Positions 1,093 through 35,479 of a stretch of 64,000 bases of DNA are shown here, one piece after another. Source of the DNA: Alphaproteobacteria bacterium (GTDB lineage: Bacteria; Pseudomonadota; Alphaproteobacteria; UBA7887); NCBI GenBank assembly GCA_965216755.1, contig CBDCGL010000011.1:1888001-1952000 (forward strand), read 5' to 3'. How positions within the stretch are numbered: position 1 is the first letter of the stretch; the number at the start of each line of letters is the position of its first letter. The translations under genes were made by a program, and so were the position numbers. A model generated the notes under the pieces. It did no database searches, was not told where the DNA came from, and saw only the letters and a list, made by a program, of their open reading frames with translations.

Positions 1093-2457
1093 ATGGTTTT
1101 TTGGGTCCTCGTTGCCGCTGTACTGCTAACACCCTTGGCAATTGGCTCAGTTGTCATGATGGCGTGGGCAATGTTGGCGTGTCTCGTTGGCGTATTGCTT
1201 CTGGTCTGGTGTTCTTGTCTGTTTGGTGGTTGGGATAGCGCAAGCCTTCGTACGCGGTTGTCGCCATGGTACGTTGTACCTTTCGTACTGATCTGTTTTT
1301 GGATCGGAATCCAACTGTGGCCCACCAATCTGCAAAGCCCCACCACCGAATTCTGGCAAGGAGCGTTCGATGCATTGGAAATGATGCCACGACCGGCTCC
1401 GTTGTCGATCAATCCCTTCGAAACCGTGTCGGCCCTTGTCCGACTCTTAACTTATGCGGGCATTTTTTGGCTTGCAGCTCAATATTGCTATTCCACTCGG
1501 CGTGCGGAACAAGCTTTCGTTTCAATAGCCGTCACCGGGCTCGCATACGGTCTTTACGGACTCGTAGTACAGTTTGGCGGTTTCGACAAAGTCCTGTGGT
1601 TGGACAAAGCGGCCTATGCAAACGTTGTCACGTCGACGTTCGTCAACAGAAACAGTTACGCCACATTCGCTGGAATCGGATTGATTTGCACCATAGGCGT
1701 TTTGGTCAAACGATATGTCGACAGTACCGACTTTGACGCGAGCCTTCGGCGAAATGTCTTAAATGTTATTCGCCTGGCCATGGAAGAAAATCCGGTGCTC
1801 GTTCTGGCTGCACTGGTCATATTGACATCGCTGACCTTGACTGCTTCGCGTGCGGGGATCCTTTGCACTTTTGTTGGGCTCGCTGCGTTCTTTCTTACTT
1901 TTCGTCCAGCGGGTGCGATGACGTCCCGCAATCTTGGAAAAGTCGCTTTTGTGGTGGCACTGTGCATCGTCGGCGTGGCGACCTATAACGGTGCAAAAGT
2001 CCTCGATCGCATGACCACAGCCGATGCCGACATGGACGAACGGCTGAAGATCTACCAGGTGACCTTAGAGGCAATTAAAACAGCCCCGCTAACCGGATTC
2101 GGGTTTGGCACATATGCTGACGCGATTCCACGTTTTCGCGACGAACGCATCGACGGACCGTTCGATAAGGCACACAGCACTTACCTAGAAATGGCCGTTG
2201 AGGTCGGTTTGCCGGCGGCGGCTCTTATATTACTTGCGCTGGTGGGACTGATTCGCCAGTGCGCGTCAGCAATACGGACGCCCAATACGGCCTCAGCATA
2301 TCCGGCGATCGGACTGGGTGTTACCGCGCTCGTCGCCACACATTCTCTTGTGGATTTCAGTATGCAGATTCCTGCGGTAGCGGCCCTCTATGCCATGGTC
2401 ATGGGCATTGCGGTGGGGCAATCTGTGCGTTGCCGGGAATCAGTTCGGGACCTCTGA
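1093..2457 (+). CDS. O-antigen ligase / Wzy_C family membrane protein
   Basis: Many TM segments; TFVNRN, LTASRAG, PLTGFGFGTY and AHSTYLE..VE.G motifs; EPS locus context. Confidence 0.85.
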   Translation: MVFWVLVAAVLLTPLAIGSVVMMAWAMLACLVGVLLLVWCSCLFGGWDSASLRTRLSPWYVVPFVLICFWIGIQLWPTNLQSPTTEFWQGAFDALEMMPRPAPLSINPFETVSALVRLLTYAGIFWLAAQYCYSTRRAEQAFVSIAVTGLAYGLYGLVVQFGGFDKVLWLDKAAYANVVTSTFVNRNSYATFAGIGLICTIGVLVKRYVDSTDFDASLRRNVLNVIRLAMEENPVLVLAALVILTSLTLTASRAGILCTFVGLAAFFLTFRPAGAMTSRNLGKVAFVVALCIVGVATYNGAKVLDRMTTADADMDERLKIYQVTLEAIKTAPLTGFGFGTYADAIPRFRDERIDGPFDKAHSTYLEMAVEVGLPAAALILLALVGLIRQCASAIRTPNTASAYPAIGLGVTALVATHSLVDFSMQIPAVAALYAMVMGIAVGQSVRCRESVRDL

Positions 2458-3204
2458 TGGCACGACGATCTGACCCTGCAAGATTCTGTTGAACGCCGCG
2501 CTGTCTTCCGCGTTGTCTCCAATCGCACGAATCGCGATATCCGCCCGCGCCAAATGATGTGCGAGGGCGACAACACTCCGACGATCATCATGTTTCCAAG
2601 CCAGACGAATTTCGCTTAGAACAGCGTCGCGTGCAAAAGTGCTGAGATGATCCCAAAGCGCAAGGCCAAGCTCAAGCCGGGGGAACGACAAGTCACGTTC
2701 GTGGGGGGCGGATGTGAATGACATTTCGAGTGCTTCGGCCGCGTGCGGCGTCGGTCCATTTATCACCGCCTCCGCAAACGACAGACGCGCCCAAGCAAAC
2801 GGGCGCACCGGCGATAGGGACAGTCCGCGACGAAGCGAAGCAATTGCGGCTCGTCCGGACGTCACATCGATGACCCCCTCACCACCCAGCAGCTCGCCCA
2901 ATGTCAGGTGCGCAGATCCCAAATCCGTGTGGACGCGCCCCGAGGCGACGTACCGCGCCATCGCGGTTCGTGATTCGATAAGCTCTCTGAGTTCGGAAAC
3001 CGTTGGATCTAGACCGGCACGCATGACAGCCAGCGTCGGTTCGCCCGGCAACCCGATAACTGCCGCCACGAGGCGCGATAAGCCACAATACACCAGGAAC
3101 ACGCCAACAATCGCCGGTACGGAAACGGAAACGACACCGATTACGCCGAGCGGCTGTTTTATTGAGTTCTTCGATGTCTTATGGAGCCGTTGCCACACAT
3201 CCAA
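2440..3204 (-). CDS. Membrane-anchored TPR-like hypothetical protein of the EPS locus
   Basis: 254-aa ORF with an N-terminal TM segment and helical TPR-like stretches (ASLRRGLSLSPVRPFAWARL, ALEMSFTSAPHE); start uncertain. Confidence 0.6.
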   Translation of the reverse strand: MDVWQRLHKTSKNSIKQPLGVIGVVSVSVPAIVGVFLVYCGLSRLVAAVIGLPGEPTLAVMRAGLDPTVSELRELIESRTAMARYVASGRVHTDLGSAHLTLGELLGGEGVIDVTSGRAAIASLRRGLSLSPVRPFAWARLSFAEAVINGPTPHAAEALEMSFTSAPHERDLSFPRLELGLALWDHLSTFARDAVLSEIRLAWKHDDRRSVVALAHHLARADIAIRAIGDNAEDSAAFNRILQGQIVVPSEVPN

Positions 3205-3240
3205 TCAAAGCTCCAAAGAGATCTCCACCCGGAGGACGAG

Positions 3241-3669
3241 CTAAAAAACCAGCCTGCGCGGCGCGTGGCCAAACCTTCGCCCTCTCAAATACATACTATG
3301 CTTCTTGTGATTGCCGCCGTAGGCATATGCAAAGTGATGGCGCCTCTTTTTCGCCAGTCTCTGGCGGATCAATCTTATGCGCTCTCTGATCTGTCGTTTT
3401 AGGTGCCTTATTCTCTTAAGTTTCTTTTTGAGTATGTCCGGGATGGTCGGGCTCTTCATCTTGTGGCCGCCATGTCCCGACATATACTTCGACGAAACAA
3501 AGTAATTTGTCGGTACGAAATATCTGGCAGGTTGCTCATGCCGGTGCCGCTCCGGCATTCCCCAGCCGTCATCCGCAGACGCCTCGCCAACGTCAAAGCC
3601 GACCAACGCCATAAAGGCGATGACCATCGTGAAAGCCGTCGCGGCTTTGAAAAAAACTTTCACAATCAA
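3241..3669 (-). CDS. Secreted, highly basic hypothetical protein
   Basis: Sec-type signal ending ASA|DD; K/R/H-rich C-terminal half; GGGGGA upstream of a TTG start. Confidence 0.55.
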   Translation of the reverse strand: MIVKVFFKAATAFTMVIAFMALVGFDVGEASADDGWGMPERHRHEQPARYFVPTNYFVSSKYMSGHGGHKMKSPTIPDILKKKLKRIRHLKRQIRERIRLIRQRLAKKRRHHFAYAYGGNHKKHSMYLRGRRFGHAPRRLVF

Positions 3670-3889
3670 ATTCCCCCGAGCTTAAGCTCCCACAAACGCA
3701 CGCTGGACGTACATACAGTTAATATTTGTCGGCTTCCTGTCAAATTCACCACCAACAATAAAGAAAGAATATTTATAGCACAATGCTAACGACACGAGGG
3801 ATTCTTTTGGCCTGGGATACTGTGCAAATCATCGGCACATCAGCGGTAACGACCATGGCGAACCCGGCGCGGACAAGCGACAATGCCAT

Positions 3890-6184
3890 TTAGCTCGTGT
3901 AGTAATTTTTGCCATATTTGGATTTGTAATATACACCAGCCTCGCCGGATCGGTATGCTGCAAGTCTTCGTACATCGACACGCGATAGTAACACACCGGC
4001 AATGTCGCCACCGGCGTCCTGCAGGCGTTTCGTCGCCAGTCGTGCGGTCTCCCGGCGTGTTTCGGCCCAACGCACAAGAAAGACAATTTTGTCGGCCCGC
4101 TTCGCGAGGATCTGCGCATCTGATACGGCCATTACGGGCGGCGTATCGACAACAACGTAGTCAAATGACTTGCGCAGCTGACGCAATAAGTTCGCGAACT
4201 TCTCGGAACGCAATAGATTGGGCGGATTGACCGTCGGCATACCCGCGGTGATGAAATGTGTGCCACTCTTGGCATCCCGCTGCAAAACCACCTCGGGTCC
4301 CGCATCCTCGATCAGATAGTCCACCAAGCCCGGTTTCCGTGTCGAGGACAGGAGCATGTGTACCATGGGGCGGCGCAGGTCGCAGTCAACGATGACAACA
4401 TTCTTGCTAACCGCCGCCAACGCGCGCGCGAGGCAAACGGCCACCGTGCTCTTACCTTCGCCCGCGACCGACGAGGTCAACATTATGGTTTTGGGTTCTT
4501 GATCCAAAGCTGACAGCATCAAATTCGTATGCAGTGTGCGAATCGACTCGGCAAAGGCAGATGCCGGCTTGTCCAACGAATAGTCTTGCGGTGAGATCCG
4601 GCCAAAGCGGCTCAACGACGGCACCAACCCAAGATTGCCGACGCCCAATTGAGCCTCGATCTGCTCTCCGTTTCTGAAGCCGCTATCAAGGGTTTCTACC
4701 AGGAAAGCAAGGCCGACCCCCAGCACGCCGGCCCCGACAAACGCCAGACTCAACAATAGCTTGACCTTCGGAAATGATGGTTCGAGGGACTCGGTCGCCT
4801 CGGTTATTATTTGGCCTTCGGCCCTATCAAATCCTTCTTGGCTACCGATTTCTTTGAATCGCGTTAGGAAGCGCGCAAACAGGGCCCGATTTGCTTCGGC
4901 TTCCCGTTCCAAGGCACGCAACTTGACCTCAGAGCCTTTAAGGGCTGCGGCCTGCGTGTTCAAACGCGCCACCTCGCCTCTCAGATACCTTTCGCGTGCA
5001 GCGGCGACGTCCAGATTGGTTCGCCGCCGCTGCAGCTCCTTCCGTATTTCGTTTCCGATCTGCGCATTCAGGTCGTCGATCTCCGCGGCGACACTCAGCA
5101 TTTTCGGGTGACGCGGCCCATATTCTTGCGCCATGTCGGCGACCCGCCGGGTCAATAGTGCCTGCTCGCTACGCAAGTCTTGAATAAGGCGCGAGTCCAA
5201 GATCTCCGCCGCTGCGGGTAGCCCGCCGGTATTGGTGATCGATTCCAATTGGCGCACCTCGGCTTCGGCCTCGGCTTTGGCGCTGTTCGCCAGTACAAGC
5301 TGTGTGTTCAACTCCGAAATCTGTTCGGCCGCCAGCGACGAGTCCTTACCCTCGAACAAGCCGGAGGCGGCTCGGTACTCCTCCACCGCACGATCCGACA
5401 CCAGCGCCTTTTCGCGCAATTCTTCCAGGCGCTCGCCGAGCCACTGGCTCGCCCGTTCGGTGGCTTCAAAGCGTTCATCGAGTTGCGAGACGATATAAAG
5501 ATCGGCGATCTTGTTCGCCACCGCCGCCGCAGTGGCAGGTTCGGCAGATTTGAACGAGATTTCGATCGCCCGCGACAACCCCTTTTGCTTTACGGTAATC
5601 GAATCCAAGACTCTACTAACAACTTTAGCGCGTGTATGTGCGGCTTCCTCGGCCACATCTTCAACCAGCTCATCCTCTGCGCCGACCGTGCTCAACCACG
5701 CCGTTGGAACCAATTGGGACAGATCAAGCAATTTTTTCGCCGGATGCGGATCACGCAACGCGTCGTTAAATTCCGGATTCGCCAGCAATCGCAGGTCGTC
5801 GACCGCGCGGCCGATCAACTTTGTCGATGTTATCCGTTGAATTTCGCTCTGCACCGCTTGAGCATCGCTAGGCAAACCGCCAACGACGGCATCAATGTCA
5901 ACAACCGATCGCTCACGCGGGTCAAGCATGATCACCGCCGTCGCGGTGTAGATCGGCGTCAATTGAAACAATATTAGGGCGGCGATCGTGGTGCATATGG
6001 CCGTCATACCGGCGATTATCACCTTGCGTCGCCAAATCATGTTCAACAACGCTTTGAAGTCGACCAGCTCGTCATCGGGCCCAAGGCCTGATGCGGTCGC
6101 AAGCGGCTCCAAATTCTCTATTGTCGCGAAACGCGACCCGAGAGCTTCATCTTTTCTCACTAACACGTGTGCCATATCGGCCAT
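3890..6184 (-). CDS. wzc: Polysaccharide co-polymerase / tyrosine autokinase (Wzc/GumC/ExoP family)
   Basis: Wzz N-terminus with PIYTATA, coiled-coil periplasmic region, YGPRHP, Walker A SSVAGEGKS, DCDLRRP, VVVDTPP, C-terminal Tyr cluster YYKSKYGKNYY. Confidence 0.93.
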   Translation of the reverse strand: MADMAHVLVRKDEALGSRFATIENLEPLATASGLGPDDELVDFKALLNMIWRRKVIIAGMTAICTTIAALILFQLTPIYTATAVIMLDPRERSVVDIDAVVGGLPSDAQAVQSEIQRITSTKLIGRAVDDLRLLANPEFNDALRDPHPAKKLLDLSQLVPTAWLSTVGAEDELVEDVAEEAAHTRAKVVSRVLDSITVKQKGLSRAIEISFKSAEPATAAAVANKIADLYIVSQLDERFEATERASQWLGERLEELREKALVSDRAVEEYRAASGLFEGKDSSLAAEQISELNTQLVLANSAKAEAEAEVRQLESITNTGGLPAAAEILDSRLIQDLRSEQALLTRRVADMAQEYGPRHPKMLSVAAEIDDLNAQIGNEIRKELQRRRTNLDVAAARERYLRGEVARLNTQAAALKGSEVKLRALEREAEANRALFARFLTRFKEIGSQEGFDRAEGQIITEATESLEPSFPKVKLLLSLAFVGAGVLGVGLAFLVETLDSGFRNGEQIEAQLGVGNLGLVPSLSRFGRISPQDYSLDKPASAFAESIRTLHTNLMLSALDQEPKTIMLTSSVAGEGKSTVAVCLARALAAVSKNVVIVDCDLRRPMVHMLLSSTRKPGLVDYLIEDAGPEVVLQRDAKSGTHFITAGMPTVNPPNLLRSEKFANLLRQLRKSFDYVVVDTPPVMAVSDAQILAKRADKIVFLVRWAETRRETARLATKRLQDAGGDIAGVLLSRVDVRRLAAYRSGEAGVYYKSKYGKNYYTS

Positions 6185-6547
6185 CGGCGACGGAACGTTG
6201 CGTTAAGCGTTAATCATCTCGCCTGAGTGGTTATATCAACGATCTGGCCCGTATTCCTCCGTGCCCAGAGGTGGCGGCCATGGTTGATCTCGATCGATCC
6301 CATTCCCTGTGGCGCGCTCTTTGTAGCCTTCGATCCAAGAGAGAGACCTTGGTTGATGTAATGCCCGTTTCGGGCGTTGGTTGCAATAGCAATTGATTTA
6401 TTTTGCAGGCCTGCGGTGTTTGCCCTCCTAACGATGAATGGAGCCGAACATGGTTTTGATCTTATTGCCAAAGTGAAATGGCCGCGCGTGCCCGTTCTAA
6501 AGACGAGAACGATGCCTCTTTCACCGATTCGCCTGGGAGATACCGGA

Positions 6548-7010
6548 TAGAGCATTCGGCCCGTGCACCGGCATTTCTTAAACGTGATACACCGTTTGCC
6601 AAAAAACTGCATCACCGCCGAACGAACGACAGATACGCCATATTTATTCTTCCGACGCTCGGCGACCTCCGAAAGGTTGGCGCCCGGTTGTGCCGGCCCC
6701 AGGCCGATAAGAATGTCTCATGCTGGTCCCACATAAAACCGTATGGTTGACCCTGCTTGGGTCCACCCATCTGGCCGTAACCTCGATAGCGACGAAACCA
6801 TATTCCCGCTGTCGATATACAAGTCCCAAATCGATTCGCCGTCCGACGGGTCGACTGGCAGTATTCTATCACTCCAATCACGCGTGAACGCCAATCCGAA
6901 CTCTTGCTCCCAGCCACGATCGTCTCCCGGTGCGTCGACAAGAAGAGTGATTCGCATCTTGAATCATACGAAAATCGCCAAACGACTCTGTTGTCACCAG
7001 AGCCGCTCTA
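6548..7010 (-). mobile_element. Degenerate, internally deleted IS630-family element
   Basis: Minus-strand frames give SSDWRSRVIGVI...STRRTANRFGTCISTAGIWFRRYR...KQGQP and QFFGKRCITFKK, resembling the IS630 OrfA HTH; bounded by TAGAGC (6548) and GCTCTA (7010); no DDE domain. Confidence 0.7.
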
Positions 7011-11076: not shown

Positions 11077-11739
11077 CTACCGAGGCAACAGCTCGCTCGA
11101 CGCGATTAGTTCCGCGTGGCTTGGATGCTGCGCATAGGCGCTGAAGTCGTCTTGGGCGACCACATGCGTCCAGCGAACGATGCCGCTACGGTCTATCAGA
11201 AAATAGCTAATTAATGGTGATACATCGTCCGGCGGGCCTTCCTCCGACGCGTCTTGTGCTTTGAAGCCGTCCTCCGCATCAATGCGCTTGCCGGCTTCAA
11301 GAACCGTGACCGGCTCGCTGAAGTCGTCGCTATCTTTGAGTAAAGTGCGCCCAAAATCGGCGACATTCAGGACTTCGGGCCAAGCTGTCGGTTGGTCTTT
11401 CGAGAACCGATATATTGGTACGCCGTATCTACGATGAATACCGAGCGTCGGGTCGGCCGCCAGTGGCAATCCTGGTTTCCGATATTTCGTATATAGCCGC
11501 GCCGCCGCGATGGATGTGGTGGTGACAGCCAACGTCTCGACCCCCTGCGTATCCAGTTCCTTTGCTGTATAGGCGAGCGCCGCCAAGTTACGCCGACAAA
11601 ATGGACATTCGAAGCTGCGTAACAAGGCCAGCAACAAGGGTGCGCGTTCGAGGTAGTCGGTCAACCGTACCCGATTGTCACCATTCACCAATGGCAAATC
11701 GAAATCAGGCGCTCGCGCGCCCGGCGCAACCATTGTCAT
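11077..11739 (-). CDS. AhpC/TSA (peroxiredoxin-like, thioredoxin-fold) protein with CPFC motif, paralogue A
   Basis: PGARAPDFDLP, LLRSFECPFCRR, AADP...HRRYG, FLIDRSGIVRW. Confidence 0.85.
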   Translation of the reverse strand: MTMVAPGARAPDFDLPLVNGDNRVRLTDYLERAPLLLALLRSFECPFCRRNLAALAYTAKELDTQGVETLAVTTTSIAAARLYTKYRKPGLPLAADPTLGIHRRYGVPIYRFSKDQPTAWPEVLNVADFGRTLLKDSDDFSEPVTVLEAGKRIDAEDGFKAQDASEEGPPDDVSPLISYFLIDRSGIVRWTHVVAQDDFSAYAQHPSHAELIASSELLPR

Positions 11740-12034
11740 TTGAGCTGATCCCTTTGTCGCAACACCTTCCGCTCTCCGCCGCAATATGGGCGTGCGCGCG
11801 CGGATCTTCAATCACATTGCTCAACAGCCGCGGCGCATCCGCCCACGACATCCGGAACCGCTCCAGATGACCGTGGGAATTGAGTTCCGCCCCACGTGCC
11901 AGCGCGGTCAATCAGAGTTCGCCAGCGGAGTAAACGCCTTGCGCAAGTCGTGTTGATTCGTCGCATATGATAGGTTTCGTGGAAGTGTGTGTGGAAACGC
12001 AACGAGGAAACGCGCCGGTGCGACCAACCGTAAG

Positions 12035-15000
12035 ATGAACTGCTCGACTTGCCAATACGAGCTCGAATCTGAATTCCGGTTTTGCCCGAAATGTGGGTCG
12101 AGACAAGCGCGAACTTGCGCGAGTTGCGGCACCGAATGCGCACCGGATTTCTCTTTTTGCCCGCGCTGCGGCAATACCCTCGATAGCCAGCCATCCGCGA
12201 CGGCATCCAAGCCTGCCGCAAACCTGGAAAAAGAGGCTGATCGTCGGCCTGTGACGGTCATATTTGCGGACTTGTCCGGGTTTACCACCCTGAGCGAGCG
12301 TATGGATCCCGAGGAAGTGCGCGCCCTTCAGGATGACTTCCACCACGCAATCCGTGATGTGGTACGTGAATTTGACGGTTTTCTAGAGAAGTTTGTTGGC
12401 GATGCCGCGCTCGTCATATTTGGCGCCCCAATCGCCCATGAGGATGATCCGGAACGTGGGTTGCGTGCCGCCCTTGCCCTGATGGAACGGATAGACACGC
12501 TCAACGAACGCTGGCAAGCCCGCGTAGGCCAGCCGCTTCGACTCCACATCGGCGTCAATACCGGACCGGTGGTGGCCGGCGCACTTGGGGCCGCGGGGGA
12601 CGCTGCCTACGCGGTCACCGGCGATACCGTCAATACGGCAGCAAGATTACAGTCCGCGGCTGGACCGGGCGAGATCCTTGTCGGCCCGCAAACCCATAGT
12701 CTGACCCGTCAGCTGTTCACATTCGAGCCTGTCGGCGAAATAAGCATGAAAGGGAAGTCCGTACCGATATTTGTCTATCGGTTATCAAACCAAGGACTGG
12801 CATCCGGTCTCGGTCCGGCCCGCGGCCTGGCAAGCTTTGGTCTTTCGGCGCCGCTGATCGGGCGAGTCAAGGAAATGACGCAGCTCAAGACTGTCTATGC
12901 GCGCGCTATCGGTGGTCGCGCCCAAATCGCGCGCATCGTGGGCGATGCCGGCAGCGGCAAGACCCGCTTAGTTGATGAATCGCTGGGCGAATTCGCCGAC
13001 GAAATGGAACAATCGAACGCGACAGTTCATCGGACATCTTGTTCCGCCCTCGGCCGTCAGGGTTTTGGTGTGTTGGCACAACTCGTTCGAAACGCCTTCG
13101 AACTCGATGAAACAGACGATTTTGAGAGTGCCCGTAACAAGATACGCCGCGGGCTTGTTGCGGCAAGCGCAGATGGTGATGTGCACCATATTGTGTCATC
13201 ACTCGGCCCCATCTTAGGGTTGGCGTCACAAGACGGCGACCCCAATACCGTGCCGCCTGAGCAGCTGAAACGCCAAATATTTGTAGCTGCCCGCGACATG
13301 CTTGAGACTTGGTTGAACGCCGGCCCAGTGATCATCGTGATTGAAGACCTACACTGGAGCGATCCGGCATCAGTCGAAGTATTGCGGTACATGGTCGAAC
13401 ACGTCTCCCAGCAACGCGTTCTTCTACTCGTAAGCCACCGCCCAACGTGGGATGCCGCTGCGTTACACACAGAAAACACGCCGCAAACGATCGTTAGGTT
13501 GTCGCCACTTGATGAGACACATTGTCACGCGCTATTCGATTGCTATTTCGGCGCGTCAACGTCGACTATTTCGGACAAGGTGCGCAGCTTCGTCGCGGCG
13601 CGTGCAGGTGGTAATCCGTTCTACCTTGAAGAACTCGTTCGCAGCCTAATTGAAAAGAAACTCATCTATCGGGAGGAAGGCATTTGGACCTCCGCCCACG
13701 CGGATGCGCCGGTCGATATCCCGATGACAATCCAAGGTCTGCTCATTTCCCGCCTTGATCGGCTTTCCGATGAGCTGCGGGCGCGGATCCAGGAAGCGGC
13801 CATATTGGGGGTCGTGTTTCGCCGCAATTTGCTTGCCACCCTGGCCGGTCCCGAAGCCGATGTCGAAAGCGGTCTGGCGGCGCTGTGCGAAGCGGAAATC
13901 GTTGAGCGGATCGACCAGCCTGGCATGCCGTACGATCGCGACGGAGACCCGCAATTTCGATTTACGCATGCCATCGTGCAAGAGGTGATCTACGAAAATC
14001 TGCTGATGCGGCGGCGGACAGAACTTCACGGTTTAGCCGGTGAGGCACTCGAAAAACATTGTAGTGGCACGCCACAACGTTTGGAAGACGCGGACGCACT
14101 GGCGCGTCATTTCAGCCGCTCCGCTGACCAAACGAAAGGGCTCAAATATCTCGTTGCCGCAGGAGATTGGTCGCGACGCAGTTTTGCAGCGGAGAATGCC
14201 GCCAGTCACTTTCGCATCCCGCTTCAATTGGTGGAAAGAAACGGGCGCAACTCTGCTCTCCATTGCGATATATTGGAACGCCTCGCTGACACGCTTGGCG
14301 CACTCGGTGAACGTGATGCCGCTTTGGCTTACTATCGCACCCTTTTGGAGATGGTGACCGCGCCAGATCACGCGATAGTGCGGGCGCGTACGCTGCGCAA
14401 GATGGCGGGTTTGCACTGGGAGGCTGGCGAACGCGACACATCGTTTGCGAATTTGCAGGCGGCGCTTGGTTTGGTTGGCGAGCATGAATCGTCAACCGAG
14501 CGTGGATACCTTTGCCAAGAGATGGGGCGACTCGCCTTTCGCAGTGGTGACAACGAGAAAGCCATTGATTGGGCCGGTCGGGCGCTTAGCGCAGTGGATC
14601 CAGCGGTTACCGCTGCCGCGACAGCCCATGGGCAACCGAATGGGGATGCTGCACGTATTGTTGCCGAAGCATATAACACGATCGGCGTTGCAAAAGCGCG
14701 TCTCGGAGAGTTTACTGATGCCGTTGCCGATGTTGAACGGAGTCTCGAAATTGCTGAATTCAATGAGCTCCACGATGTCTCTTGTCGCGGCTATACAAAT
14801 CTTGGGGTTCTTTACAGCACGCTTGATCCAAGACGCGCGATCGACGTGTGTCAGCGCGGTCTCGCGGTGGCGATCAAAATTGGCGACTTAGCATATCAAT
14901 CACTGCTCTACGCAAATCTCGGCGTGTCATACTGTACATTCACCGGGCGTTGCGAGGGTGAAGGTGTGGATGCCGTGCGCCGCGCCATCGAACTCGACCG

Positions 15001-15292
15001 ACAGCTGGGCCTGGTCGACCATCTACCGGTATCGCTCATCGCGTTGGGGCAAATCTATCAATGCCACGGCCAACCGCGTATGGCGATTGAGTTCTACCAA
15101 GAGGCGCTTGAGCTGGCAGTTGATTCAAACGAACCGCAGCTCTTGTTTCCTTGTTACGACGGACTGGCCACCGTTCATCTTGACATCGACGATTTGACCA
15201 GCGCTGAGAAATACATGGAGCAAGCGCAAGCGGTGTGCGAGCGCGCGGGCCTGGATCCGGATTCGTTGGTCGTCATGCCATTCCTGTGTTGA
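12035..15292 (+). CDS. Double zinc ribbon / class III nucleotide cyclase / AAA-ATPase / TPR protein
   Basis: Four CxxC pairs; FADLSGFT, KFVGDA, GDTVNTAARL; Walker A GDAGSGKT; Walker B IEDLHWSD; GGNPFYLEE; FTHAIVQEV; TPR C-terminus ending PFLC. Confidence 0.93.
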   Translation: MNCSTCQYELESEFRFCPKCGSRQARTCASCGTECAPDFSFCPRCGNTLDSQPSATASKPAANLEKEADRRPVTVIFADLSGFTTLSERMDPEEVRALQDDFHHAIRDVVREFDGFLEKFVGDAALVIFGAPIAHEDDPERGLRAALALMERIDTLNERWQARVGQPLRLHIGVNTGPVVAGALGAAGDAAYAVTGDTVNTAARLQSAAGPGEILVGPQTHSLTRQLFTFEPVGEISMKGKSVPIFVYRLSNQGLASGLGPARGLASFGLSAPLIGRVKEMTQLKTVYARAIGGRAQIARIVGDAGSGKTRLVDESLGEFADEMEQSNATVHRTSCSALGRQGFGVLAQLVRNAFELDETDDFESARNKIRRGLVAASADGDVHHIVSSLGPILGLASQDGDPNTVPPEQLKRQIFVAARDMLETWLNAGPVIIVIEDLHWSDPASVEVLRYMVEHVSQQRVLLLVSHRPTWDAAALHTENTPQTIVRLSPLDETHCHALFDCYFGASTSTISDKVRSFVAARAGGNPFYLEELVRSLIEKKLIYREEGIWTSAHADAPVDIPMTIQGLLISRLDRLSDELRARIQEAAILGVVFRRNLLATLAGPEADVESGLAALCEAEIVERIDQPGMPYDRDGDPQFRFTHAIVQEVIYENLLMRRRTELHGLAGEALEKHCSGTPQRLEDADALARHFSRSADQTKGLKYLVAAGDWSRRSFAAENAASHFRIPLQLVERNGRNSALHCDILERLADTLGALGERDAALAYYRTLLEMVTAPDHAIVRARTLRKMAGLHWEAGERDTSFANLQAALGLVGEHESSTERGYLCQEMGRLAFRSGDNEKAIDWAGRALSAVDPAVTAAATAHGQPNGDAARIVAEAYNTIGVAKARLGEFTDAVADVERSLEIAEFNELHDVSCRGYTNLGVLYSTLDPRRAIDVCQRGLAVAIKIGDLAYQSLLYANLGVSYCTFTGRCEGEGVDAVRRAIELDRQLGLVDHLPVSLIALGQIYQCHGQPRMAIEFYQEALELAVDSNEPQLLFPCYDGLATVHLDIDDLTSAEKYMEQAQAVCERAGLDPDSLVVMPFLC

Positions 15293-15382
15293 AAGAAAAA
15301 AGCTATGACAGATGAAAGCGTGGGTCTGATGGCAGCATTGCACGCGCCCGCGACGACGCCCCACCTAGCCTTTGGCCGATAG

Positions 15383-16072
15383 ATGAACGCAGTCATGTCG
15401 AACGAGCCCCAAATCAACGAGCCGCTGCGGATCGGCGATGCCGCGCCAGACTTCACATTGCCGGCAGTGAATCGCGAAGGTGAAATAGGCCTCGCCGACT
15501 ACGCTGGCCGGCATGCCCTATTCCTGGGGCTGTTCCGTGGTCTCCACTGCCCTTTTTGCCGGCGCCAAGTTGTGCAGATGAATGGACTGGCAGCAAAACT
15601 CCGTGAGCTTGGCATCGAATCCGTCGCGGTCGTCAACACCACATTGGCGCGGGCGCGTCTCTACTATGGGCGTCGCGCGATGAATATGGCTCTGGCCGTC
15701 GACCCCGAATGGGACACGCACAGGCGCTATGGCCTTGGTCGGCCCACATTGACCGAAGGCCAATCAGATTGGCCGCGCACGATGAATTTGAACGAGTTTC
15801 TGGCGATGCGAACCAACCCAACCGGGGAACTGCCAGAATCGCTTTCGCCGCTCGACGCGAACGAAGCCCTTAATCAACACGATGGCTTCGAGCCGACCGA
15901 AGTTGACCGACAGATACAAGCGGACCACGGTTTGACAGGCGCCGGCTATACACTGATCGGTACCGACCGTCGCGTCCATTGGACTTGGTTGGAAGGCCAA
16001 ACCGGCATGGCCGACATCGCCAAGTTTCCATCCGAAGACGAGATATTCGGCGCGGTCAAATGCGCCGTTTAA
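15383..16072 (+). CDS. AhpC/TSA (peroxiredoxin-like, thioredoxin-fold) protein with CPFC motif, paralogue B
   Basis: IGDAAPDFTLP, LFRGLHCPFCRR, AVDP...HRRYG; start may be ATG 15395. Confidence 0.87.
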   Translation: MNAVMSNEPQINEPLRIGDAAPDFTLPAVNREGEIGLADYAGRHALFLGLFRGLHCPFCRRQVVQMNGLAAKLRELGIESVAVVNTTLARARLYYGRRAMNMALAVDPEWDTHRRYGLGRPTLTEGQSDWPRTMNLNEFLAMRTNPTGELPESLSPLDANEALNQHDGFEPTEVDRQIQADHGLTGAGYTLIGTDRRVHWTWLEGQTGMADIAKFPSEDEIFGAVKCAV

Positions 16073-29222: not shown

Positions 29223-32200
29223 TCAGCGTGAGATCGGTGCGCCCGGCTGCGCCCGACGCGGATTTGCGGCGCCGTCGGCACTCGTCCCGTTCGTCGTCTG
29301 ACGGTCGCCAAAGGCGGAGAACAGCTCGCGCAAGATCCCTGGTGCCAGCGCCGTAAGTGGATTGACCGAAACGTCGGGCTCTTCCATGGTGCCGGTAACC
29401 CGGTAAGTTGCGGCGAACACGCCGCTGCCTTCGCCGCCCGTCAGAATATCGCCGATCAGCGGTATTCTTCCGATCAGACTGTTCAACATATATGCCGGCA
29501 CTATGGTGCCTTTCAGATTAAGATTTTCTTCACTCAGAAGCACACGTCCGTTCATGGTCAGCCCGATTGAAATGCCACTGGCGCGGGCACGCTCGATCGT
29601 CAGTACGTCGCCCCGTATGCCAAACGGGGCTTCGAGAGAGTTGAACGCCAATCCCCCGCCGTCCAACATCTCCAATGCACCGGTCAGCGTTGCCGCGGTC
29701 AGAACGCGGGCCAACAGCGGCGCGTCAACAACACGAAAATCGTCGACCCGAACAAAGCCCGTAACATCCGCGTCATCCGCTTCGTCGTGCAAGAGCGCTT
29801 CGACGTGCAGAGCACCGCCGACCATGTTTTGACTGAGACCGAAAGCGCGCGCCACGGCACCAGCGTCCGGCCCGCTAAGCGTGGCCAAACGATTGCTGCC
29901 GCTGGGTTCGACCCGTAACGAGAGATCGGAGCCGGCGTCGACGCTGGCATGAAATCGCATCTGGCTTAGTTTTTCGCCGTCGTACCAGCCGGACACATTC
30001 GCATCACGCACGACAATTTCGTCGGACAGGACCAATTCATCGACTTCGCCTTCGAATGTCGCTGTCACCGGCGTTGCATCAGGTTCCGTCCGATCGACGC
30101 CCAGCGAGTCGCCAGCCTCGTCTGAGTCATCTAGTATAAATGGTCTTAAATCCAGTATTTTACCGGAAAAAGTTAAATTTATGTTTGAGCTATCCCTGGC
30201 CACCAACTTCACAGACAATTCGCTGCCGCGATGAGACAAACGTTGAAATGTGATGGTTCTTCGACCGTCATCGCCGGGTTCCAATGAAGCAGCACCAAAA
30301 CCCTTTATCTCTGTCCCTTCGATCTCGAGGTCCGAAATGTCGAGCCTGCCGTCGGGATCTAAACGAATGGTCGATAACACGGATAGATTTTCAGCTGCGG
30401 GTTTGGTCCAACGCAGCATGGGCATGAAGACATCTGCAGCATCGAGATTCAGGGCCAACTGCCCCACCCACGACCCGTTAGCCCTACCAGTGATTTCTCC
30501 GTCAAGGTCGATCGGACCGGCAACACGCGGATCTGCCAGCCGGATCGCGCGACGTGCGGTCTCTGTCACACGCCCGGCCACGGTAATCTCGCGTACAATA
30601 CCCTCTGGCGCGGGTTCAAAGATCTCGTGCCACGAAAGATTGACGGTCTCACCATCGACATCGGCGGCACCGCCAAGATGGAACCCTGAAGTATTGAGCA
30701 CCAAGGAGAAGTGACCATTCCGCGCGCTGACCTCGCGTCGCGGTACGCCCGCAAAGCTGTAGCGCGTCGCGACGCCCGACAATTCAGCCAGGACATCAAT
30801 ACTCCATTGTCCGGGCCCGGGGTCGTCGCGCAACGGCGTAACAAGACGAAACTCCGAAACAAACTCGCCGCCCACCGCATCGGGATCCAGTCCCATGGCC
30901 TGCGTGTATCGAAACCGCGGTAACGAAAGCAGAGCAAGTGCCTCGGAAATGGGCCCTTCGACCGCGATATCGAACTCACCTTGTTCCTGGTCACGACCCA
31001 AATTGCGAAGTCTGACGGAACTTGGCCCCATTTCGAGTACCCCGCTCGACGCCATAGCGACGTCAATGCTCAGGTCGATGGGATCAAAGGTTCCTTGCAG
31101 TTCGATATTCTCAATTGCTGGCATCCCATCCAGATACCGCGTCGCGCCATTCGTAATCGTGAACGCACCGCGAACCCGATCGCGCGCCAAATGGCGCTTT
31201 GACCAGTCGTCACCGGCGAGGTTCAAGCTCAGCGTTAAGCGCTCGAGGTGGCCACCCTGAATATTCTCACGGACCCAACGCAATCCGCCGGGGGCCACGC
31301 CGCTAGGCCAATAATGCGCAACCTCCAGGGCCGGCACATTGCCGACAAGAACGTCACCGCGCACTTCGGGCATCGACCACGGCGCCTTCACAATCCCGGA
31401 GAACGCTGCCGTGGGGCCTTCAAAATCAATGAATGCATCGTCGATGCGCAGGGTGTCTTTGGCGGCATCGTACACCCCCTTCACTTGCGCCAGCCCGACC
31501 TCGAACAATGGTCTTTCCGGGTCCAATTCCGGCAAATTCAATGTTCCGGCACCGGATGACACGTCAAATGCCGCCCGCATCACCCGGCCATCGGCCCCCG
31601 TTGACATCTCCACGTTGGCCGACACGGGCAAATTTATCGACGCCAGTCGCGCTAACTGTGGCGACATCTCCGCCAACTTCGATGGCCAGACGTCTGCAAA
31701 ATTCACAGCCACATCAAACTTGCGCGTGTCGTTGTCAAAACGCATTGTCGCGGTTGCCGACCAAGGCATCCCGCCGACATCGACTGTCAGATCGGCATCG
31801 CCACTCAATCCGCGGTCATCGCGGTAAACCGCGATTGTTGCGCTTGGCGCGACCCACTGCGTGTGCAGTTTCATATCGTCCACGGTCACACGCGCGCGCG
31901 CGATGCTCAGGCCCTCAAGGTATCCTAAGGTCTGGCTTCGATCGGGCGTATCCAAGAGCTCTGCCACGACGCGCTCAACCACGACTTCGTCGCCTGCTGC
32001 GTCGGCGTCGCTGGCGTCAGTCGCGGCGACACCCGCGGTCCGAACCGCGCCATCCGGCCGCCGCACCAAATGGATCTCCGGCCCGCTGATTTCCAACCAG
32101 GTCGGCGCGATCAGTCCACGCGAAAGCGCCAACACACTCAGTCCAAAGCCCATTTCTGGGATGACGGCGGCGACCGCTTTGTCGTTCTGACTGTCGATCG

Positions 32201-32447
32201 CGCGGACATTGAACGCACGCACCGAGACGGCATTCTGCCAACCCGACCAGTTGATACTCAAATCGTCGAAACGGATGTCGATATCGTCGAAGCCATCACT
32301 CAGCGCCGCCTCGACGTAGGGCGCAAAAGTCTGCAGAGAGATCGGACCACTGGATAGTCGCCACGCCGCAGCCGCAACAAGCATGGCCAGCATTGCGGCC
32401 AACGCTGCCAGTCCGTGCAACAGTCCTCTTGTGGCTGGACGGATCAA
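29223..32447 (-). CDS. AsmA-like / DUF3971 (YhdP-like) envelope protein
   Basis: N-terminal TM anchor then RLSSGPISL; beta-rich body; C-terminal GTIVPAY.LN....IP.IG...GEG.GVFAATY.VTG...P.VSVNPL.ALAPG; TTG start estimated. Confidence 0.85.
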   Translation of the reverse strand: MIRPATRGLLHGLAALAAMLAMLVAAAAWRLSSGPISLQTFAPYVEAALSDGFDDIDIRFDDLSINWSGWQNAVSVRAFNVRAIDSQNDKAVAAVIPEMGFGLSVLALSRGLIAPTWLEISGPEIHLVRRPDGAVRTAGVAATDASDADAAGDEVVVERVVAELLDTPDRSQTLGYLEGLSIARARVTVDDMKLHTQWVAPSATIAVYRDDRGLSGDADLTVDVGGMPWSATATMRFDNDTRKFDVAVNFADVWPSKLAEMSPQLARLASINLPVSANVEMSTGADGRVMRAAFDVSSGAGTLNLPELDPERPLFEVGLAQVKGVYDAAKDTLRIDDAFIDFEGPTAAFSGIVKAPWSMPEVRGDVLVGNVPALEVAHYWPSGVAPGGLRWVRENIQGGHLERLTLSLNLAGDDWSKRHLARDRVRGAFTITNGATRYLDGMPAIENIELQGTFDPIDLSIDVAMASSGVLEMGPSSVRLRNLGRDQEQGEFDIAVEGPISEALALLSLPRFRYTQAMGLDPDAVGGEFVSEFRLVTPLRDDPGPGQWSIDVLAELSGVATRYSFAGVPRREVSARNGHFSLVLNTSGFHLGGAADVDGETVNLSWHEIFEPAPEGIVREITVAGRVTETARRAIRLADPRVAGPIDLDGEITGRANGSWVGQLALNLDAADVFMPMLRWTKPAAENLSVLSTIRLDPDGRLDISDLEIEGTEIKGFGAASLEPGDDGRRTITFQRLSHRGSELSVKLVARDSSNINLTFSGKILDLRPFILDDSDEAGDSLGVDRTEPDATPVTATFEGEVDELVLSDEIVVRDANVSGWYDGEKLSQMRFHASVDAGSDLSLRVEPSGSNRLATLSGPDAGAVARAFGLSQNMVGGALHVEALLHDEADDADVTGFVRVDDFRVVDAPLLARVLTAATLTGALEMLDGGGLAFNSLEAPFGIRGDVLTIERARASGISIGLTMNGRVLLSEENLNLKGTIVPAYMLNSLIGRIPLIGDILTGGEGSGVFAATYRVTGTMEEPDVSVNPLTALAPGILRELFSAFGDRQTTNGTSADGAANPRRAQPGAPISR

Positions 32448-32524
32448 CGTGAATTCGACATGTTCGTCGGGCGGCGAATGACCGCCGATTACCCCCAATC
32501 TTGACCTGGTCGCTGGGGACCTTA

Positions 32525-35479
32525 ATGGACAACGCCTGTCAATCCAACCTCCGCCACCCGCCACGCGCCGGCAATCCTGAGGCGGCGGCGCGCGGGCTCG
32601 AAGATTGGCGCACGCAAAGCGCCAATTCCGATCGCCCCGAATTGAGAACCGCAGCTGGTCTGGCCGACGCCGAAAACAGCCGCGTTGTTCTGGAAGCGCT
32701 ATTTGGAAATGCGCCATTTCTTGGCCGCTGTGCCCTGGCGGAACCCGAGTTCTTCGCTTGGGCGCTCTCGGCGACACCAGAAACATGCTGGAACGGCATT
32801 CTTTCCGCCATCGCCTACGATGCGACCAAGGACCTGGACGACGATAGCGTTAAACGGGCCCTACGCATCGCGCGGCGGCGGGCTGCGTTGTTGGTCGCGA
32901 TCGCTGACTTGACCGGTAAGTGGTCGATCGAAACCTCCGCCCATGCCCTGTCCCGCTTCGCGGAAGCCGCGATCGCGCGAGCGGTCGAACATGTGATCGC
33001 TCGGGGTGCCGATACCGGCGATCTGGACGTTGCCGACCCGCTGGATCCGGCAAAAGACTGCGGATTGATCGTGCTTGGCATGGGAAAGCTCGGCGGCGGC
33101 GAGCTGAACTACTCAAGCGACGTCGACCTGATCGTTCTCTATGATCTTGACAAAGTGGCGTATCGCGGGCGGCGCACCGTGCAGGACTATTTTGTCCGCC
33201 TAACCCGCTCCTTAGTGTCAATATTGGACGATCGCACTGTCGACGGTTACGTGTTTCGTACTGATCTGCGTCTGCGACCGGATCCGGGCGCAACGCCACT
33301 CGCGCTTTCGGTCTCGGCGGCGGAAACGTACTACGAGAGTCTCGGCCAGAATTGGGAACGCGCGGCCATGATCAAAGCCCGCCCGATCGCCGGTGATCGC
33401 GATGCAGGCGACGCATTTCTCCAATCAATTCGGCCGTTTGTTTGGCGACGCTTCTTGGATTTTGCCGCCATTCAGGACATCCACGCCATCAAACGACAAA
33501 TTCACAGCCACAAGGGCGGTGGCGAGATCCAGCTGGCCGGGCACAACATCAAGCTCGGCCGTGGCGGTATTCGCGAAATCGAGTTCTTTGCGCAAACGCA
33601 GCAACTTATTTGGGGTGGCCGCTATCCGGAGCTGCGCACGCGCGGAACGATTGACGCGCTCAACGGACTCGCCACGTCGCACCGCATTTCGCCAGATGCG
33701 AAATCCGATTTGACCGCCGCATATTGGTTTCTCCGCGGCGCCGAACAGCGGCTGCAAATGGTCGAAGACCGACAGACCCACGTGCTGCCCAACGACGACG
33801 GCGAACTTGCCCGGTTTGCGACCTTTCTCGGCTACGACGACCCGCAGACTTTTTTGGCCACACTGCACCATCACCTCCACGCGGTCGCAGATCATTATGG
33901 GCGATTGTTCGAAGAGTCGCCCGATCTCGCAGCGCCGACCGATCGGGGCGGTAGTCTGGTGTTTACAGGCGTCGAGGGTGACGAGGAGACCTTGACCACA
34001 TTGTCGGATATGGGGTTCGAGCGCACCGAGACTGTGTGGGACATCATTCGTGGCTGGCATCATGGCCGTCTGCGCGCTATGCGTTCGACACGAGCGCGCG
34101 AAATATTGACCAGCATCATGCCGAACTTGCTGGCGGCATTTTCGCGAACCGCGAATCCGAGTCAGGCGCTGCTCAACTTCCACGAATTCTTGAGCAATCT
34201 TCCAGCTGGCGTTCAGCTGTTCAGTCTGTTTCAGGCTCATCCGCCCTTGCTTGACTTGGTCGCGCAGATCATGGGCACAGCCCCCAAACTGGCCATCTAT
34301 TTAAGCCGCCATGCGCGCCTATTTGATGTTGTCCTAACCGAAGGTTTTCTCGATCCGATGCCTGAGAAGCCGGTCCTTGCCGAAGCGCTGCGTACCGCGC
34401 TGGCGCCGGCTGTCGACTTTCAGGACACGCTCGACATGGTGCAGCGGTGGACCGGTGACGCGAAGTTCCAAGTGAGCGTGCAACAGTTGAAGGGGCTGGT
34501 CGACAGCGAAGCCAGTGGTCGCACCCTTGCCGATATCGCGGATCTGGCCTTGGAGGCCATGACCAATGCGGTCCAGGTCGAGTTCGCGAAGAACTACGGC
34601 CGTGTGCCAGGGGCCGGGTTGGCGATTTTGGGCTATGGCAAACTCGGCAGTCGCGCGCTCAATCGTGGGTCCGATCTGGATATCGTCTTCGTTTACGATA
34701 TCGATTCCAGCGGCAGCGGGTCTGACGGTCCCAAATCCTTGATGCCCAGCACGTATTACAACCGCCTTTGCCAGCGCCTGATCACGGCGCTCAGCGCGCC
34801 GACAGCGGAGGGTAAACTCTACGAAGTTGACATTCGCCTGCGCCCCATGGGCAATGACGGTCCGATAGCGTCCGAGTTTATTGGTTTCGGGAGGTACTAC
34901 CACGAGGATGCGTGGACATGGGAACTCATGGCCCTCACCCGCGCGCGGGTGGCGGTAGCAGCGCCGGAACTAGCGAACCGACTGGCGGACGTCTTTCATG
35001 ATGTCATCACGCGCAAAAGAGAACCAGCACCCTTGATGCGCGACGTCGTGGAAATGCGCGTACGCATGGCTCAAGAACACGGAACATCCGATCCCTGGTC
35101 CGTCAAGCATGTTCGGGGTGGATTGATCGACGTCGAGTTTATCGCCCAAGCGCTGCAGCTCCGCTACGCGGCGGAAAATGAACAGATACTGAGCGTGGAC
35201 ACGGCGCTCGCACTGCGCAAATTGGTTGAAGCCGGTTACCTGTCCGCCGATGATGGCGGCGACTTGATTGCAGCGTTACGGTTGTATCTCGATGTTCAAG
35301 CCATGGCCCGATTGTGCTTGGTCGAGGCCATTGATGAGAATGCACCCGCCGGCCTCCGCGAGGCCTTGGCACGCGTCGGCGGTTGCGAAAGTTTTGCGAC
35401 ACTTCACGATCATTTGCGAGACACGCAATCGCGTATCCACGGCATCTTCAAAGCATTGATCGAAGCACCGATCACGTAG
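32525..35479 (+). CDS. glnE: Bifunctional glutamine synthetase adenylyltransferase / adenylyl-removing enzyme
   Basis: Two nucleotidyltransferase repeats: GMGKLGGGELNYSSDVDL...DLRLRP and GYGKLGS....SDLD...DIRLRP; WERAA; GGIREIEF. Confidence 0.97.
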   Translation: MDNACQSNLRHPPRAGNPEAAARGLEDWRTQSANSDRPELRTAAGLADAENSRVVLEALFGNAPFLGRCALAEPEFFAWALSATPETCWNGILSAIAYDATKDLDDDSVKRALRIARRRAALLVAIADLTGKWSIETSAHALSRFAEAAIARAVEHVIARGADTGDLDVADPLDPAKDCGLIVLGMGKLGGGELNYSSDVDLIVLYDLDKVAYRGRRTVQDYFVRLTRSLVSILDDRTVDGYVFRTDLRLRPDPGATPLALSVSAAETYYESLGQNWERAAMIKARPIAGDRDAGDAFLQSIRPFVWRRFLDFAAIQDIHAIKRQIHSHKGGGEIQLAGHNIKLGRGGIREIEFFAQTQQLIWGGRYPELRTRGTIDALNGLATSHRISPDAKSDLTAAYWFLRGAEQRLQMVEDRQTHVLPNDDGELARFATFLGYDDPQTFLATLHHHLHAVADHYGRLFEESPDLAAPTDRGGSLVFTGVEGDEETLTTLSDMGFERTETVWDIIRGWHHGRLRAMRSTRAREILTSIMPNLLAAFSRTANPSQALLNFHEFLSNLPAGVQLFSLFQAHPPLLDLVAQIMGTAPKLAIYLSRHARLFDVVLTEGFLDPMPEKPVLAEALRTALAPAVDFQDTLDMVQRWTGDAKFQVSVQQLKGLVDSEASGRTLADIADLALEAMTNAVQVEFAKNYGRVPGAGLAILGYGKLGSRALNRGSDLDIVFVYDIDSSGSGSDGPKSLMPSTYYNRLCQRLITALSAPTAEGKLYEVDIRLRPMGNDGPIASEFIGFGRYYHEDAWTWELMALTRARVAVAAPELANRLADVFHDVITRKREPAPLMRDVVEMRVRMAQEHGTSDPWSVKHVRGGLIDVEFIAQALQLRYAAENEQILSVDTALALRKLVEAGYLSADDGGDLIAALRLYLDVQAMARLCLVEAIDENAPAGLREALARVGGCESFATLHDHLRDTQSRIHGIFKALIEAPIT

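Follow-up and report, generated by a model that had tools for sequence, protein, structure and literature searches.

We describe here a cyclase–redoxin gene module in a 64,000-nucleotide stretch of an Alphaproteobacteria bacterium genome (contig CBDCGL010000011.1, positions 1,888,001 to 1,952,000; hereafter the window). A large gene encoding a predicted class III nucleotidyl cyclase with a STAND-type NTPase core and a cysteine-rich tetratricopeptide repeat (TPR) region is accompanied by genes for AhpC/TSA-fold redoxins carrying a CPFC motif, and the cyclase and redoxin genes very probably form one functional unit. The analysis directly shows gene linkage, phyletic coupling, cysteine conservation specific to the orthologues, a selenocysteine (Sec)/Cys pair in the redoxin family and intact catalytic motifs.

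The first-pass annotation of the window had placed one redoxin gene divergently upstream and a second co-directionally downstream of a cyclase of about 1085 residues. The open reading frames (ORFs) at 11077-11811(-), 11987-15292(+) and 15383-16072(+) bear out this layout, and the length is reached with the ATG at 12035, which is the likely start because the amino termini of orthologues read MxCxxCGF. The module comprises the following features:

11077..11811, minus strand: redoxin A (P0001), CPFC AhpC/TSA-fold protein with family insertion; ORF from TTG 11811, divergent from the cyclase
11739, minus strand: likely ATG start of redoxin A (~220 aa), read from the sequence
11812..12034: divergent intergenic region between redoxin A and cyclase (11740-12034 if the inner start codons are used)
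11987..15292, plus strand: cyclase gene (P0002), ORF from GTG 11987
12035, plus strand: likely ATG start of the cyclase (1085 aa)
12041..12172, plus strand: double zinc ribbon, residues 19-62 (Pfam DZR)
12245..12763, plus strand: class III nucleotidyl cyclase catalytic domain, residues 87-259 (Pfam Guanylate_cyc)
12851..13426, plus strand: AAA_16/STAND NTPase core, residues 289-480 (Pfam)
14273..15256, plus strand: TPR sensor region, residues 763-1090 (Pfam; modelled as an all-helical superhelix)
14783..15289, plus strand: Cys-rich final TPRs and tail with C933, C955, C983, C989, C1026-H1027, C1056, C1084, PFL and C1101
15293..15382: gap of 90 bp between cyclase stop and redoxin B start
15383..16072, plus strand: redoxin B (P0003), CPFC AhpC/TSA-fold protein with family insertion; co-directional, downstream of the cyclase

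Cyclase and redoxin genes are linked in both search directions

The linkage was assessed from both partners. In the forward direction, 185,579 species genomes were scanned with the redoxin (alignment A2), yielding at least 579 stretches with at least 525 confirmed; in the reverse direction, metagenomes were scanned with the cyclase TPR domain (A4), yielding at least 600 stretches with at least 577 confirmed. The best 80 loci of each scan were analyzed, and partner genes in the loci were identified by targeted tblastn with the cyclase domains and by Pfam on candidate ORFs.

Among the best 80 redoxin loci, an orthologous cyclase stood directly beside the redoxin in 34, with 56–66% identity in the cyclase domain and 47–55% in the TPR domain; 30 of these genes were intact or cut by the contig end and four were remnants. 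The cyclase lay upstream and co-directional in 21 of the 30 and convergent in seven. The other two were L098, which combines a divergent upstream redoxin with two downstream redoxins and so resembles the window, and L077, where a distant form of the cyclase has redoxins on both sides. Several Burkholderiales-type loci carried tandem redoxin pairs after the cyclase. The 46 redoxin loci lacking a flanking cyclase came from Rhizobium, Ensifer/Sinorhizobium, most Variovorax and metagenome-assembled genomes (MAGs) labelled Rhodospirillaceae. Five genomes whose best redoxin stood alone each encoded exactly one such cyclase elsewhere, directly followed by a further redoxin copy in four of them; in the fifth (L204) about the first 26 residues of a redoxin-like match (E 5.8e-5) were visible before the contig ended.

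The reverse scan gave a redoxin directly downstream and co-directional in 74 of the best 80 cyclase loci, at a gap of -15 to 77 bp and once of 301 bp, and two redoxins upstream in another two, so that 76 had an adjoining redoxin. In the four without one, little or nothing of the upstream side was visible, and the downstream side of one was limited to 149 bp. The suggestion made from the window that the redoxins are dedicated partners of the cyclase thus stood up, given the adjacency in both directions together with the co-occurrence described below. The bracketing of the cyclase by two redoxins, which had been taken as the form of the module, holds for the window and is otherwise one variant, a single downstream redoxin being commoner. 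Redoxin B occupies this usual position, and the 90-bp gap before it, in which no terminator-like site was found, is compatible with co-transcription with the cyclase, without proving it. The divergent region towards redoxin A contains a single weak sigma-70-like match (minus strand, 11995-11967), which is at chance level.

RefSeq examples of the pair are BLM14_RS24610/RS24615 of Phyllobacterium zundukense and E5P2_RS36380/RS36375 of Variovorax sp. SRS16. In the Sinorhizobium plasmid records the locus was unannotated. The module flanks vary, comprising transporters, dehydrogenases and LysR regulators, with sporadic cyclic nucleotide monophosphate (cNMP)-binding, REC-cyclase, DUF5939-cyclase, catalase-like and MsrA genes, and no third partner gene conserved across lineages was found in them.

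Individual flanks showed further features. The Variovorax SRS16 locus carries a divergent gene for a cNMP-binding protein (L211:2577-3287(-)), which could be a receptor candidate. Burkholderiales-type loci have a convergent gene for a response-regulator-cyclase next to the module (L072:10683-11771(-), L070:5273-6361(-), L073:8684-9802(-)), and a DUF5939-cyclase gene is present in an alphaproteobacterial locus (L121:10931-12373(-)). At L056:7215-9893, within an otherwise syntenic Methylomirabilota-type locus, a gene for an NRPS-like A-T-TE protein fills the cyclase slot upstream of the redoxin.

The two genes co-occur and have been re-linked by paralogues

We then related presence of the two genes across 301 genomes sampled from the phylum, using thresholds of E ≤ 1e-40 for the cyclase and E ≤ 1e-25 for the redoxin. 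Both genes were found in nine genomes and neither in the other 292; in all eight positives other than the window genome one redoxin copy directly follows the cyclase. Within a set of 41 relatives, the cyclase was present in G000 (the window genome), G002, G003, G004, G006, G016 and G028, and as a contig-edge fragment in G013 (L041). The redoxin family occurred in exactly these eight, leaving 33 relatives with neither gene; weak redoxin matches in G010 and G023 were other thioredoxin-fold proteins.

Overall, the module spans at least three deep lineages, namely Rhodospirillales-like, Rhizobiaceae/Phyllobacteriaceae, and Burkholderiales with Methylomirabilota-type genomes. A FastTree phylogeny of 186 redoxin rows implied at least 13 changes in cyclase adjacency. 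Redoxin B falls in a clade with eight further members, none of them beside a cyclase, redoxin A in another clade whose other members are likewise not adjacent, and the cyclase-linked redoxins of the relatives (L030, L041, L124, L125) form a third. Because both window redoxins belong to otherwise non-adjacent clades, we consider that the window layout arose by paralogue replacement; linkage that has been re-established by paralogues can therefore be argued to be selected in itself. In G028 (L222, C1:741000-750000) a DDE transposase gene (3773-5131(-)) splits the cyclase between NTPase and TPR parts (1188-4100 and 5239-6198), and the adjacent redoxin (6320-6936) is frameshifted, so that the two genes are decaying together.

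Several observations weigh on the other side. Seven of the eight non-window positives in the 301-genome sample come from one family, and common flanks unite the Methylomirabilota-type loci, among which are contigs bearing the labels Verrucomicrobiia, Dormiibacterota and delta proteobacterium; because many loci thus come from few lineages, the counts overstate their independence. Adjacency is not obligatory, since G003 (92% complete) has an intact cyclase whose flanks, to 2.4 kb upstream and 3.8 kb downstream, contain no redoxin. Beside the cyclase of G006 lies a 31-residue redoxin remnant and nothing more, and many members of the redoxin family stand alone in heterogeneous, unrelated contexts.

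The existence of such stand-alone paralogues would also fit a redoxin that does not interact with the cyclase and is instead a co-expressed antioxidant or repair enzyme, or an output of the pathway, with the linkage reflecting co-regulation; oxidative-stress genes do sometimes flank the module (catalase-like in L060, MsrA in L196). We regard this as improbable, as adjacency in 76 of 80 loci and exact phyletic co-occurrence across changing flanks and orientations would be unusual for a general antioxidant, and the redoxin lacks the peroxiredoxin (Prx) Thr and Arg.

The large protein has intact cyclase and STAND motifs

Pfam analysis placed the domains of the large protein in the order zinc ribbon, class III cyclase, STAND NTPase and TPR. 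The cyclase domain matched Guanylate_cyc PF00211 over residues 87-259 with 102.3 bits (cut-off 21.9), which identifies it as class III, and the NTPase matched AAA_16 with 67.2 bits (cut-off 32.6). The carboxy-terminal part matched TPR_12 with 91 bits, completing the combination of STAND/AAA_16 NTPase and repeat sensor, and TPR_MalT with 43.8 bits, below its cut-off of 45. Across 18 full-length orthologues (A3; 44–49% identical, one at 36%), D95, D139, N216 and R220 were invariant and K135 was at least 90% conserved. We take D95 and D139 to be the metal-binding aspartates, N216 and R220 the transition-state residues and K135 the substrate-specifying residue. Likewise, the GxGK of Walker A and a Walker B-like DLHWxD were invariant in the NTPase core. 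The first zinc-ribbon CxxC...CxxC was retained in 17 of the 18 orthologues and the second in three. We read the large protein as a STAND-type class III nucleotidyl cyclase of the cytoplasm, with adenylate cyclase as its probable activity.

Two further assignments were rejected. A match to the TOMM system kinase/cyclase fusion family TIGR03903 reached 243.6 bits against a cut-off of 705.75 and covered the cyclase and NTPase part only, and Pfam found no kinase domain. For Pycsar-type anti-phage defence, PADLOC returned generic cyclase-domain matches only (best 61.8 bits) and none for the redoxins, and no recurrent effector gene was found in the module flanks, which also counts against it.

About ten full-length cyclase-NTPase-TPR paralogues, 27–32% identical, lie on contig C11 of the window genome, and no redoxin was found within their 1.5-kb flanks. 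In addition, about 14 shorter cyclase-domain matches were observed in this genome, amounting to an unusually large cNMP signalling repertoire.

Seven cysteines of the TPR sensor are specific to the redoxin-linked orthologues

The cysteine motifs and the PFLC end quoted in the first-pass annotation are all present in the cyclase translation, and its expectation that the TPR cysteines would be conserved was confirmed for seven of them. In the 18 full-length orthologues, C933, C983, C1026 and C1056 were retained in all, C989 in 17, and C955 and C1084 in 16 each. The extended set of 114 distinct TPR domains retained C933, C983 and C1026 in 114, C989 and C1056 in 113, C1084 in 111 and C955 in 108, corresponding to 94.7–100%. 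None of the seven was present in eight paralogues of the window genome that lack redoxin neighbours. The terminal C1101, by contrast, which had been singled out as a feature, is not conserved (8/18 full-length orthologues, 44/114 TPR domains); the preceding P-F-L is invariant. Two points temper the significance of the seven cysteines. As 131 of 352 columns of the TPR domain are conserved at 90% or more, their conservation is striking and not unique, and they sit at differing positions within their repeats.

The TPR model (pLDDT 88.6) is an ordinary superhelix whose fold matches were LGN/Pins-like and consensus TPR structures. In this model C983 and C989 flank one helix A–B turn and C1026-H1027 close helix A of the next repeat; from textbook TPR geometry, C983, C989, C1026 and H1027 could meet in space. 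This arrangement raises the alternative that a metal (Zn, Fe-S or other), coordinated by H1027 and the TPR cysteines, is what senses O2, NO, reactive oxygen species or metal availability, while the redoxin only keeps the ligands reduced or assembles or repairs the site. Such a site would account for the near-invariance of seven Cys and one His, the CX5C of C983/C989 together with C1026-H1027 could provide a Cys3His site, and L077, the sole orthologue without C989, also has Arg for H1027. However, no classical Fe-S or Zn motif is present, the ligands lie scattered across about 150 residues, the flanks show no recurrent genes for cofactor assembly, and thiol exchange is a more typical task than cofactor insertion for a dedicated Sec/Cys oxidoreductase. 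We consider a primary metal sensor unlikely, though it is the main rival to thiol exchange.

The redoxins combine a peroxiredoxin scaffold with a thioredoxin-like active site

Pfam assigned both window redoxins to AhpC-TSA/Redoxin (AhpC-TSA 57.5 and 51.2 bits, cut-off 26) and they are the only members of their subfamily in the window genome. They share 33% identity over 208 residues (E 1e-38) in an alignment that includes the motifs from which they had earlier been called paralogous CPFC redoxins. The common insertion of about 50 residues proposed at that stage was likewise recovered, at about 45–50 residues relative to the window Bcp (35514-35993), which lacks it. C56, F58, C59, R60 and R61 were among the residues invariant in alignment A2 (25 relatives). 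In the alignment with Bcp, the single peroxiredoxin reference used, the Bcp Cys pairs with the second CPFC Cys, Thr with the first, and the catalytic Arg with non-Arg residues, so that the Prx triad is not retained. Because the CPFC thus falls on the Thr/Cys positions and the Arg is not kept, the scaffold appears peroxiredoxin-like and the active site thioredoxin-like. By this alignment the redoxins are classed as thioredoxin (Trx)-like CxxC oxidoreductases (UxxC in selenium users) on a peroxiredoxin scaffold and not as canonical peroxidases. They are probably cytoplasmic, since inspection of the amino terminus revealed no hydrophobic stretch or signal peptide.

The redoxin AlphaFold model (pLDDT 92.3) matched only generic folds of the TlpA/ResA/DsbE and Prx types, none of which covered the insertion, and searches of the PDB by sequence profile and fold for both proteins returned generic Trx/Prx and TPR folds and nothing closer. 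The nearest NCBIfam model, SelL-related redox protein NF040769, scored 52.3 and 37.2 bits, below its cut-off of 120, and the ESM Atlas matches were unnamed 'redoxin domain-containing' clusters. Prediction of a complex between the TPR domain (A3 residues 734-1085) and the redoxin (A2) gave a score of 0.00 against a mark of 0.32, which is evidence neither way. Among longer homologues no fused cyclase–redoxin protein was found at E ≤ 1e-10, which is weak evidence. A single 657-residue frame in G013 (L038:136-2106(-), contig C25) joins a redoxin minus its last ~20 residues to a TolB-like/TPR carboxy-terminal part, and is either a real redoxin–TPR fusion or a frameshift or assembly artefact of the MAG.

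The family insertion is placed where Trx/Prx folds carry an active-site loop. It could also serve a different mode of coupling, in which the redoxin is a peroxide or electrophile sensor whose redox-dependent conformation is recognised non-covalently by the TPR groove, for instance via the insertion, with the TPR cysteines being structural. The resemblance of the TPR model to peptide- and protein-binding superhelices such as LGN/Pins and the invariant ...LPFL tail would suit such a groove, but this mode leaves unexplained why conservation of the seven cysteines is confined to the orthologues linked to a redoxin, and we consider it improbable.

Probable selenocysteine forms mark the first CPFC residue

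The codon for the first CPFC Cys was an in-frame TGA in 25 of 185 distinct redoxins, TGG in one and Cys in the rest. The TGA forms read U-P-F-C, U-A-F-C or U-H-F-C (L133:7215-7280, L068:7490-7555, L151:2342-2407 and 22 further loci), occur in at least three tree clades and are cyclase-adjacent in 23 of the 25 cases. The Sec machinery was checked in one source genome, the MAG of L068 (G346), where selB (359.9 bits, cut-off 242.25) and tRNA-Sec (71.3 bits) were found on one contig. From the codon pattern, the 25 TGA-form redoxins are probably selenoproteins. In folds made to look for a bacterial SECIS hairpin, single sequences 3' of the TGA gave hairpins with GU-containing loops, with a mean minimum free energy equal to that of the Cys forms (-21.8 against -21.3), and the alignment fold downstream of the TGA contained five pairs and no compensatory change, so that covariation lent a SECIS no support. 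No selB above cut-off was found in the window genome, whose redoxins use Cys.

Replacement of Cys by Sec among homologues is the usual hallmark of a residue with a catalytic redox role. The Sec/Cys pair at this position thus marks the first CPFC residue as the catalytic redox centre and, as it sits at the first residue of the motif and not at the Prx peroxidatic position, favours Trx-like exchange chemistry.

A candidate mechanism of thiol-dependent gating

Our preferred reading is one of disulfide or selenylsulfide exchange between the redoxin and the TPR cysteines, through which the STAND core and cNMP synthesis would be gated, a proposal on which we place even weight for and against. In such a scheme the first Cys or Sec of the redoxin would attack, or donate a disulfide or selenylsulfide to, the sensor cysteines; the redox state of the TPR sensor, possibly a Zn-thiolate switch, would control the NTP-dependent activation of the STAND core, and this activation would in turn set cNMP synthesis. 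Physical contact, the direction of electron flow (a resetting reductase or an oxidising relay) and the effect on cyclase activity are what we infer here. Only tentatively do we advance the more specific version, in which the C/U-P-F-C redoxin reads the oxidant or reductant load and writes it, through disulfide or selenylsulfide exchange, onto a Cys3His-type, possibly Zn, site in the last TPRs that would control oligomerisation and cAMP/cGMP output. If this version were true, no earlier bacterial cyclase or STAND protein would be known to have a redoxin of its own as its gate, and stand-alone redoxin paralogues would feed the same TPR sensor.

Relation to known systems

The mycobacterial proteins Rv0386, Rv1358 and Rv2488c have a cyclase-ATPase-TPR-LuxR architecture. 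The window cyclase resembles them in its amino-terminal class III cyclase, STAND/AAA_16 NTPase and helical repeats, with a presumed logic of a sensor gating an effector; in contrast, it lacks the LuxR helix-turn-helix and has a zinc ribbon, Cys-rich terminal TPRs and a redoxin neighbour. To our knowledge, none of these three features has been described for the mycobacterial cyclases. The combination of an NTPase with a carboxy-terminal TPR-like sensor is also that of MalT-type STAND regulators, which are activated by ligand-dependent, NTP-driven oligomerisation. Unlike in MalT, the effector here is a cyclase and not a DNA-binding domain, and in place of a small sugar the proposed signal would come from a partner protein or from the redox state of sensor cysteines.

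For the redoxins, the closest parallels are UxxC/CxxC proteins on a peroxiredoxin scaffold in which Cys or Sec stands in for the Thr of Thr-x-x-Cys, so that this first position shows Sec/Cys pairs. In PMC2398784, Prx-like UxxC selenoproteins are known as a class ('Prx-like 1', pfam00578), and cyclases are not mentioned there (0 occurrences). The window family differs in its insertion of ~50 residues, its fixed C/U-P-F-C-R-R and its cyclase linkage. PRX_like2 of CDD is presumably another Prx-like UxxC/CxxC relative of the window redoxins. The best PDB matches, TlpA/ResA/DsbE and AhpE, share the fold and a CxxC at a helix amino terminus, the CPYC of 3hdc being near to CPFC, with query-normalised TM-scores of 0.46–0.59 for the redoxin model; those proteins are extracytoplasmic and of ~140–160 residues, whereas the window redoxins have no signal peptide and carry the insertion.

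Thiol peroxidase relays such as Orp1/Gpx3-Yap1 and Tpx1-Pap1, and the Zn-thiolate switches RsrA-SigR and Hsp33, provide precedents for moving oxidising equivalents on and off the cysteines of signalling proteins, as is proposed here. Those relays and switches act on transcription factors, anti-sigma factors and chaperones; in the module proposed here the sensor of a STAND cyclase would take their place. No description of a redoxin-linked cyclase module was found in the literature searched, PADLOC, NCBIfam or the ESM Atlas; PMC5498481 deals with other S. meliloti cyclases. The components of the module are of known kinds; the coupling of cyclase and redoxin is undescribed in the literature searched.

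For most class III cyclases of bacteria, as for most STAND sensors, the input is not known. The module offers a concrete candidate, redox acting via a dedicated Cys/Sec oxidoreductase, and hints at an undescribed route from the redox state of the cell to a second-messenger signal. It is widespread, with at least 525 confirmed redoxin matches and at least 577 confirmed TPR matches in the two scans, and occurs in soil Methylomirabilota-type MAGs, Burkholderiales and Rhizobiaceae, with Rhizobium, Sinorhizobium, Phyllobacterium and Variovorax as cultivable and genetically tractable hosts. A confirmed role would assign a function to proteins annotated as 'redoxin domain-containing' or 'peroxiredoxin-like family' and to a set of bacterial selenoproteins, which are now without any.

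Other features of the window

The surroundings of the module are housekeeping genes with no evident relation to it, including those for a 2-hydroxyacid dehydrogenase, an MBL-fold hydrolase, an RraA-like protein, MnmA and TenA. The called ORFs of a YhdP-like giant protein (29223-32786(-)) and of glnE, encoding glutamine synthetase adenylyltransferase (32501-35479(+)), overlap by ~285 nt, probably through an over-extended glnE start codon. A GC/AT-skew peak at 46-48 kb (GC 0.657, AT skew 0.27) corresponds to the repetitive carboxy-terminal half of an RNase E/G gene (44714-47392(+)), which contains a 39-nt repeat in ~2.9 copies at 46702-46813; the feature is ordinary.

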